A DNA stretch of 64,000 nucleotides from Escherichia phage Phi1: sequence record EF437941; one strand, 5' to 3'. Under the pieces are notes generated by a model, which ran no database searches, was not told the origin of the DNA, and saw only the letters and a program-made list of their open reading frames with translations. The position numbers and the translations under genes are program-made. How positions within the stretch are numbered: the first letter of the stretch is position 1; each line of letters begins with the position of its first letter. This document shows, one piece after another, positions 54,504 through 62,332 of this stretch.

Positions 54504-54587
54504 TGTTTGATTCTCCTAAGTGGTATCTCGTTTCGATGGTTGTATTGTAGGGGGAGTTATCCTCCCCTGTCAACACTTTTTATAAAA
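54504..54587 (-). promoter_or_regulatory. early promoter cassette 3
   Basis: TTGACA, palindromic spacer GGGGAGGATAACTCCCCC, conserved leader and RBS. Confidence 0.55.
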
Positions 54588-56590: not shown

Positions 56591-56911
56591 TTAGTCCTCA
56601 CTTATAAGGTCAAACCAATTGTTTTTCGCATAATGCTTAATGCGTGCTTGATCTGCTTCCGCTGGTGATAGATTCCATGCAACCACTACAACTTCTGACG
56701 CATCGTCATCCGTTTCTGATACCCAATGATTGTGATTCATACAGTTATTTGCTATCGAGTGAGCAAATGATTTCATCACTGGAGACGTATAATCATAGTA
56801 ACGGATTTTCAGATTTTCATCAACATACAAATAGATCGTATAAGGTTTATATTCAGTAACCAGTAACAGACAGTTACGCAATTCTGGGAAAATCTTTTTA
56901 GTTAATTTCAT
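56591..56911 (-). CDS. HxHW-motif small protein (106 aa)
   Basis: NHNHW ... SPAEAD. Confidence 0.5.
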   Translation of the reverse strand: MKLTKKIFPELRNCLLLVTEYKPYTIYLYVDENLKIRYYDYTSPVMKSFAHSIANNCMNHNHWVSETDDDASEVVVVAWNLSPAEADQARIKHYAKNNWFDLISED

Positions 56912-57113
56912 ATTCTAGTTCTCCGTAATACACGGTAATCCATTTTTCTTCATACTTTGTATCTTTCCAACACACAATACCGTTTACTGTGCAATCTTTG
57001 GAATTGACGAATGATTCATATTGTTCCGCATCTTCCATCATTTCATGAGCGGTCTTTTCATCGAATATATCGCAGATCGCTTTATATGCTCGATAATCTT
57101 TAAATTTGCTCAT
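56898..57113 (-). CDS. hypothetical protein (71 aa), tandem paralogue B
   Basis: Start set to ATG at 57113; MSKFKDYRAYKAI... Confidence 0.5.
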   Translation of the reverse strand: MSKFKDYRAYKAICDIFDEKTAHEMMEDAEQYESFVNSKDCTVNGIVCWKDTKYEEKWITVYYGELEYEIN

Positions 57114-57115
57114 AA

Positions 57116-57325
57116 TTAACACCACTCAAGAGTTTTTGAAAACACATCTATCCATTGTTGAGTATATGCGGTTTCTTTCCATGATACAATACCAGTCGAA
57201 TAATGGTTTTTGTTTCCAGAAAAGGACGGGCATTTTGATGCATCTTCCATCATCTTTTCGGCGAACTCTGGTTCGTATACTCGCAAGATCTGTTGATATG
57301 CTTTATAATCTTTAAACTTACTCAT
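57116..57325 (-). CDS. hypothetical protein (69 aa), tandem paralogue A
   Basis: MSKFKDYKAYQQI...; similar to the adjacent 71-aa ORF. Confidence 0.5.
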   Translation of the reverse strand: MSKFKDYKAYQQILRVYEPEFAEKMMEDASKCPSFSGNKNHYSTGIVSWKETAYTQQWIDVFSKTLEWC

Positions 57326-58030: not shown

Positions 58031-58100
58031 TTTGATTCTCCTATATCTCGTTGGTATGTGTGTAGTATAGGGGATCGGTGATCCCCTGTCAACAACTTTT
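58031..58100 (-). promoter_or_regulatory. early promoter cassette 9 (GATC palindrome)
   Basis: TTGACA, spacer GGGGATCACCGATCCCC, conserved leader. Confidence 0.6.
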
Positions 58101-59192: not shown

Positions 59193-59264
59193 GATTGATT
59201 CTCCTAGTTCGTTTCGGTATGTGTGTATTATAGGGGATCTCCCGATCCCCTGTCAACAACTTTT
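59193..59264 (-). promoter_or_regulatory. early promoter cassette 10 (GATC palindrome)
   Basis: TTGACA, spacer GGGGATCGGGAGATCCCC, conserved leader. Confidence 0.6.
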
Positions 59265-59576: not shown

Positions 59577-59663
59577 TTTTGATTCTCCGTTTAAGAAAGT
59601 GTGTTTCGTTTTGATGTGTGTATTATAAGGGGATCACCGATCCCCTGTCAACAACTTTTTGAA
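59577..59663 (-). promoter_or_regulatory. early promoter cassette 11 (GATC palindrome)
   Basis: TTGACA, spacer GGGGATCGGTGATCCCC, conserved leader. Confidence 0.6.
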
Positions 59664-60140
59664 TTATTTTTCTTGATGCTCGCGCTCGTACTTTTCGAAA
59701 TAAAATTCTACTGGCTGATCGTGGATTGAAAGCAAGCCAAAGCGTTTAGCCGCTCGCAATCCCATATTGCGCTGAATGTACTTCTGGAAGTTCTCGCGTA
59801 TACACTTACGCCAGGATTCTAAGCCCATACAGCTTTTATAAAGATTGCATTGCACACACGCCGGATTCATGTTATCAAGTATATCATGCTCCGGTTTATG
59901 CATTCCTACAACCTTATACTTCCACGATCCATCATCATTACGAGCAATTCGTCCATTTTCATCATAGACTACCTTTGAGCGTCGTAATACTGGTTTGATG
60001 TGGTCTGCGTGCCAGCGATCCCCTAGTTCCTCGCCACAATAGGCACAACGTCCACCATATTTCATTTTCAGGATCTGGCGTTGCTCTTTCTTTGACAATT
60101 TTTTAGGTTTAGGGGCTTTCGCCCCTTCATTATCACACAT
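59664..60140 (-). CDS. HNH endonuclease
   Basis: CAYCGEELGDRWHADHIKP plus NMNPACVQCNLYK (HNH motif with paired Cys clusters); start overlaps the ligase gene end. Confidence 0.75.
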   Translation of the reverse strand: MCDNEGAKAPKPKKLSKKEQRQILKMKYGGRCAYCGEELGDRWHADHIKPVLRRSKVVYDENGRIARNDDGSWKYKVVGMHKPEHDILDNMNPACVQCNLYKSCMGLESWRKCIRENFQKYIQRNMGLRAAKRFGLLSIHDQPVEFYFEKYEREHQEK

Positions 60141-61629
60141 CGAATACCTCTTTTACTGTATTTGCAGTGGTCTTGTCGTAGCGAATACGTTTGATGATCG
60201 GGAGAAATAAAGAGAACTCCGGTTCATCTTCTTTACGTGATTTGCTTCGAATGTACCCGTTGCATGTCATCTCAATGACTTTTCCGACCAGGTTATGCCG
60301 TTCAGCCCATAACATTTCTCGGTCAAGATCATTTCGACGATCGAACGGAATTACACGTTCAATACCATCATCACATTTTTCGGTTGTGGTGTCAGTCAAT
60401 CCCGATCCGGTGTTAGTCATCATTCGTCCGCACGCACTACGGACAGTAAAACCGCCCACCTTATTAGGATCTTTACTATGCGGATATACATCAACAATTT
60501 CCGCGTCGAAGTCAATCACTTCTTTAAATTTAACCTGATCTTTACTGCGACGATCTTCAAATACACCATGTAAATTTTTAAGGATAATACCTTCTAATCC
60601 CATGTTTACATAGCGATGATATACTTCGCGAGCTTCATCGAGATTGTTAACTACGGTATTTTCGATTATCTGAACACGAGGATCGTTAAGTTCTTCAACA
60701 ATCTGTTTTAGTTCCTCAAATCGATCTTTATACTGCTTCGTTGCTTTCTCGTTACCGTAGTACACATCACGGTCGATAACATCCCAGACAGTGTAAACAA
60801 TACATTGGGCTTCTTCTTTTGGAATAGTTCCTTTCAGTGATTTGTTGAGGATACCATTTCCGGTCTGACGATCTGCAACAACGGATTCTTTCACTGCTTC
60901 CGTTACTGGCGTTAATGGCATTTCCTCTTCTTCAAATATCCATGACAGAGTACCATCATAAACGCTCTCAACGAAGTTCTGCGCTGGTGTTTGCGAAAGG
61001 GTAGGCATATATACCAATTCGCCATCTAGAACAATTCCACGGCCTCGTAAACGCTCTAAAACCGCAAACAAATCATCAAGCCCTTGATAGGTATTACCTG
61101 AGCGGGTATAGATTGCTAATGTTTCCCCGTCAATATCAGCCATCCCACGAGCGCCATCGCTTTTAAGTTGTGCATACGCCGGATACTTGATATTAGCAAT
61201 AGTCTTGTCAGAACATGACGATGCAAGGTGGCACGGCTGCTGGGGGATCAGTTTCTTCCATACCTTGTTTGCAGTGGTAGCGGAACAACCGCATTCCAGG
61301 TCACGATTCAGGACCATCATTGCAACTTTAGCATCATCCTCTGACAAGCAAGTCAGAGTATCGGTAACTAGCTGTAATGCTGCATTACCAGTTACTTGAC
61401 GCGTGGCAAGTTTATTTTTAAAGACCTGTAATGCACCGGATAAAGACAATACAGACGAATAACGCGATGGTTTATCGTATTTCTTTACGCCAAACGTAAC
61501 CTGTTTGCAATATGCCAGATAAAAGCATTCTTTCAGCGTTTCATTGCTCGCGGATTCTTTCAGAATCTTTTCTTTCAGCGATGTTTTGTCTGTTGCTGCA
61601 AGCTGATTAATGATATTAAGAATTGACAT
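60133..61629 (-). CDS. 30: ATP-dependent DNA ligase gp30
   Basis: Start set to ATG at 61629 (RBS GAGGTGA); adenylation motif KSDGAR; overall resemblance to T4 ligase. Confidence 0.9.
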   Translation of the reverse strand: MSILNIINQLAATDKTSLKEKILKESASNETLKECFYLAYCKQVTFGVKKYDKPSRYSSVLSLSGALQVFKNKLATRQVTGNAALQLVTDTLTCLSEDDAKVAMMVLNRDLECGCSATTANKVWKKLIPQQPCHLASSCSDKTIANIKYPAYAQLKSDGARGMADIDGETLAIYTRSGNTYQGLDDLFAVLERLRGRGIVLDGELVYMPTLSQTPAQNFVESVYDGTLSWIFEEEEMPLTPVTEAVKESVVADRQTGNGILNKSLKGTIPKEEAQCIVYTVWDVIDRDVYYGNEKATKQYKDRFEELKQIVEELNDPRVQIIENTVVNNLDEAREVYHRYVNMGLEGIILKNLHGVFEDRRSKDQVKFKEVIDFDAEIVDVYPHSKDPNKVGGFTVRSACGRMMTNTGSGLTDTTTEKCDDGIERVIPFDRRNDLDREMLWAERHNLVGKVIEMTCNGYIRSKSRKEDEPEFSLFLPIIKRIRYDKTTANTVKEVFDV

Positions 61630-62095
61630 TTTCACCTCGTTTTGTTAAACGTTCACGAATATCATTGAGGATACTACAAAATTCCGATTCAGTCAATATA
61701 GTCTTTAACGGATCAGTTCCACCTATACTATGACGCAATTTCTTATTTCCGGTAGCGAGTAATGCTTTACAAAATTCTGGGTTATTCCGTGCCATCGTAA
61801 CAAATGCCAGATGTACCAGTCTGTAATAATGCTCACTCATTCGATGAATCGGGCGACCCTGAAAATATAACATGTGATTCTCTATCTTTTCGGTCCTTCC
61901 GGTTCTTTTTGCTTTGCCACCGTGCATCAAAAAGATTTCTCTTTGTCTCTGAGGGTTCTTAAATCTTAGCCCCTGTAAAAATCCTTCTGTGCTGTTAATA
62001 TCGCAACCAAATAGACGGAATGGTCTTTTATTGAAATTACTCAATTCACCCGATGGATAAGGTCCACCCGCATAGATATCAATTTCAGAAGTCAT
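61616..62095 (-). CDS. possible NADAR/YbiA-like (DUF1768) protein
   Basis: Loose matches to YbiA-like motifs: GELSNF, STEGFLQGLRF, ALLATGNKKL; 159 aa; overlaps the ligase start by 14 nt. Confidence 0.45.
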   Translation of the reverse strand: MTSEIDIYAGGPYPSGELSNFNKRPFRLFGCDINSTEGFLQGLRFKNPQRQREIFLMHGGKAKRTGRTEKIENHMLYFQGRPIHRMSEHYYRLVHLAFVTMARNNPEFCKALLATGNKKLRHSIGGTDPLKTILTESEFCSILNDIRERLTKRGENVNS

Positions 62096-62249
62096 TGAAA
62101 CTAATCTCGCTAATCAGAGAGAACGGATCATAATCGTCACTAGGAATATCGATAGTAATCGAGTGAGGGTTTACCCATACACCAAACTGGTCTTCTTCGG
62201 TGAATACTTCGGTATGGATTTCGTGGATGTTTACATTCATAGTTTTCAT
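62085..62249 (-). CDS. hypothetical protein (54 aa)
   Basis: ATG with RBS AAGGAA; end overlaps the NADAR-like gene start; below the ORF-track cut-off. Confidence 0.35.
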   Translation of the reverse strand: MKTMNVNIHEIHTEVFTEEDQFGVWVNPHSITIDIPSDDYDPFSLISEISFNDF

Positions 62250-62332
62250 AATAAAATTCCTTAATAATCAATAACTTACAAAATCATATAGCCAAAATAT
62301 AGGCGGGATTATTACCCGCCGTTTAAAAATCA

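Follow-up and report, generated by a model that had tools for sequence, protein, structure and literature searches.

An HNH endonuclease gene overlapping the DNA ligase gene of Escherichia phage Phi1: probable vertical inheritance with the ligase block in Krischvirus-like phages

The ligase locus of phage Phi1

The stretch of DNA analysed here, referred to as the window, comprises 64,000 nucleotides of Escherichia phage Phi1 (EF437941). On its minus strand a 54-aa ORF, a homologue of gp30.3, the ATP-dependent DNA ligase gp30 and an HNH endonuclease gene form a cluster of four packed genes with overlapping ends (Table 1). A terminator-like hairpin (62302-62320) is located after gp31, just upstream of the 54-aa ORF, whose equivalent in phage RB49 is RB49p215. 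The ligase starts with a GTG at 61635 in the program-made ORF list and with an ATG at 61629, two codons downstream (MSILN...), in annotated relatives.

At the other end of the cluster, a perfect sigma-70 promoter, TTGACA-N18-TATAAT, begins 12 nt past the HNH stop codon, with a stem-loop as its spacer. Such promoter/stem-loop (PeSL) cassettes have been described by Arbiol et al. as recombination points of the hyperplastic regions of RB49 and phi1 (PMC2839356). With the cassette next to the HNH gene, the ligase-HNH unit ends and the hyperplastic region begins.

Table 1. Features of the ligase-HNH locus (positions are those of the window)
Feature	Position	Strand	Basis or remark
PeSL cassette: TTGACA, stem-loop GGGGATCGGTGATCCCC, TATAAT	59622..59651	minus	12/12 promoter match, fold
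HNH endonuclease CDS, 158 aa	59664..60140	minus	ORF list, Pfam HNH, PHROG 2118, RB49 annotation, AlphaFold2
HNH codons 90-99, NMNPACVQCN	59844..59873	minus	structural Asn90, second CxxC, metal-site Asn99
HNH codons 32-47, CAYCGEELGDRWHADH	60000..60047	minus	first zinc CxxC pair and HxDH catalytic motif (D46-H47)
Hairpin AGGGGC-GAAA-GCCCCU in HNH codons 5-10	60111..60126	minus	RNA fold, z=-3.0
Ligase/HNH 8-nt overlap, ATGTGTGA	60133..60140	minus	HNH ATG within final ligase codons and TGA stop
HNH Shine-Dalgarno AAGAGG	60147..60152	minus	6 nt upstream of ATG, within ligase coding sequence
ATP-dependent DNA ligase gp30	60133..61635	minus	Pfam DNA_ligase_A_M E=4.7e-22; PHROG 114 E=3e-141
gp30.3 homologue	61616..62095	minus	overlaps ligase start; Pfam Phage_30_3 E=1.2e-38
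54-aa ORF, first in packed cluster	62085..62249	minus	ORF list

An intact HNH nuclease gene of the H-N-N type

The first-pass annotation had read the 158-aa ORF as an HNH protein with two cysteine pairs, and sequence, Pfam and PHROG 2118 all confirm this reading. The ORF opens with an ATG and its motifs are intact, namely C32-A-Y-C35, H44-A-D46-H47, N90 and C95-V-Q-C98-N99. These comprise the two zinc-site CxxC pairs of the HNH superfamily (C32, C35, C95 and C98), the catalytic Asp-His pair, the structural Asn and the metal-site Asn, and the terminal Asn99 makes the motif an H-N-N variant. The protein matches the Pfam HNH family (PF01844) with 27 bits against a curated cut-off of 21.4 (E=5e-6), and the PHROG 2118 'HNH endonuclease' profile over residues 4-157 (E=1.3e-54); matches of this strength argue that it is not a chance ORF. 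In an alignment of 43 diverse homologues, R21, C32, C35, D46, H47, R53, N90, P93, C95, C98, N99, K102, R111, F146, F148 and E149 are invariant, while H44 is present in at least 90%.

The same alignment revealed a C-terminal signature common to PHROG 2118 members, W110/R111...R129...G135-L136...F146-x-F148-E149. It also agrees with the AlphaFold2 model (pLDDT 93.3) in delineating a conserved C-terminal helical extension of about 50 aa. The protein has the beta-beta-alpha-metal fold, and its gene is a real and intact HNH-type nuclease gene encoding a predicted enzyme. HNH is the only Pfam family matched, with no DNA-binding module (NUMOD, IENR1, AP2 etc.) among the matches, and searches of NCBIfam and PADLOC gave nothing above threshold, only generic HNH matches. 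A defence-system identity was set aside, the PtuB, Cas9 and retron HNH models all scoring below threshold.

Comparison with characterised nucleases

A single-sequence search of the PDB returned nothing significant, and a Foldseek search of the model against the PDB gave no match at E<=0.001. With the family profile, one significant match among PDB sequences was obtained, 4H9D (E=4.7e-5), which is Gmet_0936 of Geobacter metallireducens. In the profile alignment, D46-H47, N90 and N99 of the phage protein correspond to D53/H54/N68/N77 of Gmet_0936. The latter has been reported to be an H-N-N zinc enzyme with weak Mn2+-dependent nicking activity on supercoiled and AP-site DNA (PMC3765158), and a section heading of the same paper states that it is not by itself a Holliday-junction resolvase. 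The two proteins share the four-Cys zinc site and the D/H/N/N residues over a sequence alignment that spans only about 57 residues. In contrast to Gmet_0936, the phage protein carries an extra beta-hairpin of about 25 residues (residues about 56-80) as well as the conserved helical extension at the C-terminus, about 50 residues long.

Predicted expression with the ligase

The 8-nt overlap between the HNH gene and the ligase 3' end, noticed in the first reading of the sequence, is correct as described, and 7 Krischvirus sequences have exactly the same junction. In phage Ec_Makalu_002 a ribosome-binding site has been annotated at the place equivalent to the Shine-Dalgarno sequence of Table 1. 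A scan of the interval between the ligase and the HNH gene found no consensus promoter or terminator, weak 9-of-12 promoter-like sites occurring inside the ligase only. Taken with the overlap, this makes co-transcription with the ligase and translational coupling to it the best inference from the nucleotide sequence, so that the co-transcription proposed earlier stands at that level. Location and promoter context suggest an early gene.

A GAAA-tetraloop hairpin lies just inside the HNH coding sequence. Seven Krischvirus sequences share it unchanged. A 70%-identical metagenomic relative (L008) lacks both the hairpin and the N-terminal insert encoded by it, DNEGAKAP, which is specific to Krischvirus. 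The hairpin may act in translation or mRNA stability, or may be what is left of a PeSL. Around the HNH start, the first 90 nt are identical in 7 phages except for one SNP in one of them (L092).

Known record of the gene

A megablast search with the locus returned 58 phage records at 95-99% identity, all of them Krischvirus (RB49, JSE, GEC-3S and others), and the window belongs to this genus of RB49-like T4-type phages. The HNH gene is the orthologue of RB49 ORF212 (RB49p212, NP_891783.1), annotated 'HNH endonuclease' directly after gene 30, and is already known, having been annotated in RB49 and in about 50 further genomes of Krischvirus. ORF212 and its Krischvirus orthologues (protein cluster P0001; PHROG 2118) are 97-99% identical in amino acid sequence to the protein of the window, and ORF212 likewise follows gene 30 and overlaps it by 8 nt. 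Petrov et al. (2010) counted, in their Table 5, one 'other HNH' putative homing endonuclease gene each for RB49 and phi1 and two for JSE (PMC2993671). The gene is not named in that paper, and we infer that the shared entry is ORF212. The literature searched, judged at the level of search results, contained no experimental work on this protein or on its plasmid homologues. What the present analysis adds to this record is that the HNH gene looks like a clade-fixed, selected member of the ligase block.

Fixation and constraint

With a 1.4-kb query comprising the downstream gene, the HNH gene and the ligase 3' end, the ligase and HNH genes were found contiguous in 57/57 full Krischvirus records; a 58th ligase record, a 1.5-kb RB49 fragment, was left out. 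This count alone is weak evidence because all sampled Krischviruses are about 97% identical, and the argument for fixation rests mainly on three deeper metagenomic lineages (L008/L009, L182-L185 and L186). In all three the order 30.3-ligase-HNH is kept, with ligase-HNH junctions that differ between them (a 1-nt overlap, a 23-nt overlap and a 16-nt spacer). Across the four lineages, pairwise amino acid identity is 56-70% for the HNH protein, 50-69% for the ligase and 51-53% for gp30.3, and the catalytic and zinc residues of the HNH protein are intact in all of them. These values indicate that the HNH gene has co-diverged with the ligase and is at least as constrained.

Nei-Gojobori comparisons of the window with six Krischviruses agree in this respect. 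The dN/dS ratio of the HNH gene is 0.015-0.09 versus 0.03-0.06 for the ligase, at equal dS (0.12-0.17 and 0.13-0.18, respectively). The GC content of the HNH gene is 43%, against 41% for the window.

Two of the metagenomic contigs, L182 (ERZ27275837 k141_13924, 167,953 bp) and L186, share the block pseT-cd-31-30.3-30-HNH, and the contigs L182-L185 are all about 168 kb long, which matches the size of T4-type genomes. L182 and L186 are uncultured T4-type genomes with a ligase only 50-60% identical to that of Krischvirus, and are likely representatives of undescribed genera related to it.

No HNH-less ('empty site') allele was found in Krischvirus or in the intermediate lineages, the latter having been reached through the HNH query itself and all carrying the gene. 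Searching IMG/VR with the ligase C-terminus returned Krischvirus and Aeh1-like loci only, and a ligase profile run against metagenomes returned either Krischvirus ligases (97-98%) or distant ones (<=42%), with no intermediates. The sporadic presence and absence among close genomes that is typical of homing genes is thus not seen for this gene, nor is the relaxed constraint or decay that would be expected after fixation in the homing-gene life cycle. In one Krischvirus metagenomic contig (L104, MAVA01000210.1, 527-615 and 870-1029), three short homopolymers of the HNH catalytic region have each lost 1 nt, and the 3' end of the gene is divergent. These changes most likely reflect sequencing or assembly error, the alternative being a rare degenerate allele, and the contig was not counted as evidence of decay.

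Distribution outside the lineage

Ligase identity is below 45% in about 1470 records of other T4-type phages. Among the matches listed, all members of the HNH family below 60% identity lie on records of 12-79 kb. In metagenomes and viral contigs, ligase queries collected 86 T4-type loci, 72 of them with at least 600 nt of downstream sequence. The five Krischvirus loci carry the HNH gene, and it is absent from 81/81 non-Krischvirus loci, whose ligases are 35-51% identical. This absence from other T4-type ligase loci suggests that the gene was acquired a single time.

The family itself is large, with 366 clusters at 50% identity (E<=1e-10) among 1.84 billion representatives, and occurs in 174 phage records and in 2699 PLSDB plasmid records, of which 2447 are conjugative. 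A homologue separates DNA polymerase from helicase in Edwardsiella phage eiAU, another follows primase and methyltransferase in Salmonella phage Sasha, and a third is located in the nin region of HK225. On plasmids it is found as trbC|HNH|traN in IncFII, as traX|HNH|traY in an IncI-like region and among unknowns in pHCM1, and in at least one F-like plasmid trbC abuts traN with no HNH gene between them. Three plasmid homologues of about 40-45% identity (L005 4986-5405, L007 4986-5435 and L006 4884-5408) lie in conjugative transfer operons.

Within two genes on either side of the homologues, 25 non-redundant IMG/VR viral loci carry NinG, NinB, NinH, RusA, NinI, Q, P, Prim-Pol, methylase and ParB, with no ligase or terminase among these neighbours; ligase adjacency is likewise absent in eiAU, Sasha, HK225 and the plasmids. 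At the family level PHROG 2118 resembles a selfish element, its genes standing alone between conserved neighbours in backbones that are unrelated to one another, a pattern with which a homing-type origin or a residual exclusion function would be compatible. The literature searched contained no paper assigning a function to the plasmid homologues at trbC|traN or traX|traY. The family being very common in the transfer operons of conjugative plasmids and in prophage nin regions, a single biochemical characterisation would annotate thousands of genes.

Proposed origin and role

Taken together, these data are best read as describing a zinc-finger HNH endonuclease that is fixed in its lineage, vertically inherited and under selection, and that was acquired once and is not currently a mobile homing cassette; we give this joint reading a probability of roughly 60%. 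Briefly, an ancestor of the Krischvirus-like T4-type phages would have acquired a PHROG 2118 gene once, possibly by an ancient homing-like event. The insertion point would have been the 3' end of the conserved pseT-cd-31-30.3-ligase block, where it borders the hyperplastic region. Since then, the gene would have passed vertically with the ligase, with purifying selection keeping it intact.

The protein would be made early in infection from the ligase mRNA through the translational coupling described above. In the predicted zinc-stabilised H-N-N enzyme, His47 would act as the general base while Asp46 and Asn99 would hold Mg2+ or Mn2+, and the enzyme would most probably nick one DNA strand, by analogy with its closest solved relative. 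Its role may be that of an accessory DNA-processing enzyme in replication or recombination, or of a nickase that excludes competitor DNA, in either case to the benefit of the phage.

HNH enzymes generally leave ends of the type that DNA ligases seal. Ligatable nicks could explain why co-expression with the ligase is tolerated or even useful. Since family members are also encoded by plasmids and prophages, and an unspecific nuclease would be toxic there, their activity is probably weak, specific for certain structures or lesions, or under tight control. Nuclease activity, substrate and benefit are all predictions drawn from the sequence of the gene and its relatives. Fixation and selection of the HNH gene in the ligase block, over a clade wider than a genus, speak for a function that benefits the phage rather than for a transient selfish element.

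Alternative explanations

The first-pass annotation had suggested a homing endonuclease that invaded the ligase locus. In its active form, this would be a free-standing, intron-less enzyme like those of T4 mobE or segG, which would nick or cut the ligase region of HNH-less co-infecting relatives and be copied into it by repair. Several observations fit. The 'other HNH' genes of RB49, phi1 and JSE have been counted as putative homing genes (PMC2993671), the shared entry being ORF212 by the assignment made above. The free-standing homing genes of T4 sit between conserved DNA-metabolism genes and those of HNH type nick one strand, and mobA-E and I-HmuI resemble the phage gene in their place beside a DNA-metabolism gene, probable read-through expression and likely nicking (PMC2988022). 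In many backbones a family member stands alone between essential genes, and at the trbC|traN junction of F-like plasmids the presence of the gene varies. Among the matches listed the gene of the window is limited, within T4-type phages, to one clade.

Against this, the T4 mob genes occur sporadically, even where the phages are closely related, and have a distinct C-terminal DNA-binding region, whereas the phage gene is clade-fixed and constrained like the ligase, and Pfam recognises no DNA-binding module in it, its only match being HNH. Presence/absence polymorphism is absent from the 57 Krischvirus records and from the three lineages down to about 58% identity, in all of which the gene stays ligase-adjacent and co-diverges with the ligase under purifying selection of the same strength. 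Moreover, the C-terminal extension is highly conserved across differing insertion contexts, which is unexpected if each member recognised its own long target. The comparison of ligase-flanking regions that the first-pass annotation had proposed as a check therefore yielded a fixed ligase-adjacent gene, the pattern which, as far as conservation is concerned, it had itself named as speaking against it. An active homing endonuclease is accordingly considered unlikely.

A dedicated ligase partner is a more doubtful proposal still. Here the two proteins would form a nick-and-seal module, in which nicks made by the HNH protein are resealed by the ligase for recombination, repair or PeSL-mediated shuffling. 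The predicted translational coupling, the adjacency retained in four lineages despite remodelled junctions, and the ligatable ends that HNH enzymes are generally held to leave are all consistent with it. So is the position of the gene at the border of the PeSL-rich hyperplastic region, and Arbiol et al. speculated on a helper protein acting at PeSL stem-loops (PMC2839356).

The adjacency is not specific evidence, however, as the whole pseT-cd-31-30.3-30 block is syntenic anyway, and it may be a simple outcome of this conserved synteny. Homologues outside the clade have no ligase neighbour (25 viral loci, eiAU, Sasha, HK225 and the plasmids), and a family-wide ligase partnership is not supported. 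PeSL recombination also occurs in T4/PST and KVP40/nt-1 (PMC4122927), while among the matches listed no member of the HNH family belongs to another T4-type phage. An extended form, in which the HNH protein and the ligase act as a lineage-specific nick-and-seal pair on PeSL stem-loops or competitor DNA, with the ligase limiting self-damage and the pair driving PeSL-mediated shuffling or exclusion, is a speculative idea with little likelihood of being correct.

Equally improbable is an endonuclease VII-like enzyme that resolves junctions or branches in recombination or packaging. T4 endonuclease VII (gp49) is, like the phage protein, a zinc-binding beta-beta-alpha-metal nuclease of about 157 aa. 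Secondary PHROG matches to 'endonuclease VII' (phrog_1035, E=4e-10; phrog_2914, E=1e-6), BFVD structural neighbours auto-labelled 'recombination endonuclease VII' and prophage neighbours that are often NinG/Rap, NinB or RusA point in the same direction. A substitute for gp49 or an orthologue of it was rejected, as Krischvirus has its own 44.6%-identical gp49 and the similarity of the HNH protein to gp49 is negligible.

Finally, a terminase-associated HNH protein of the HK97 gp74 or GVE2 type (e.g., GVE2 HNH, PDB 5H0O) that stimulates packaging cleavage was rejected on gene context and is very hard to credit: Gme HNH and GVE2 HNH, both treated in the literature together with packaging HNH proteins, are among the closest solved structures, but no terminase gene lies within about 8 kb on either side in RB49 (16.5 kb around ORF212) or among the family neighbours at 25 viral loci, location and promoter context suggest an early gene in a DNA-metabolism operon, and T4-type phages package by the headful mechanism with the gp17 nuclease, with no need for cos cleavage.

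The border with the hyperplastic region

Gene content turns variable directly beyond the HNH gene, where 16/57 Krischvirus records are without the downstream neighbour found in the window and many have insertions. Two alternative 3' ends of the HNH gene occur in Krischvirus (window 59664-59690 compared with L001, L091 and L095): the protein ends in ...EREHQEK and is followed by the PeSL in the window, whereas it ends in ...ERENKE and is followed by ORF211 in RB49. The two ends indicate a recombination breakpoint within the final HNH codons.

Further PeSL-like cassettes recur on the minus strand at 59227-59256, about 58063-58092 and about 54544-54573. They consist of TTGACA, a GGGG...CCCC stem-loop spacer and TATAAT, TATACT or TACAAT, lie upstream of small ORFs downstream of the HNH gene, and agree with the mobile regulatory cassettes known from RB49 and phi1. 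Some of the small ORFs of the hyperplastic region are paralogous. By eye, an H-x-H-W motif is common to five of them, including ORFs of 94 and 121 aa, neither of which gave a BLAST match, and a VLAVDV-like motif is present in some. Between 56308 and 58995 on the minus strand, ORFs of 97, 106 and 106 aa are weakly related (26%), and at 56898-57325 on the same strand tandem ORFs of 75 and 69 aa are 46% identical.
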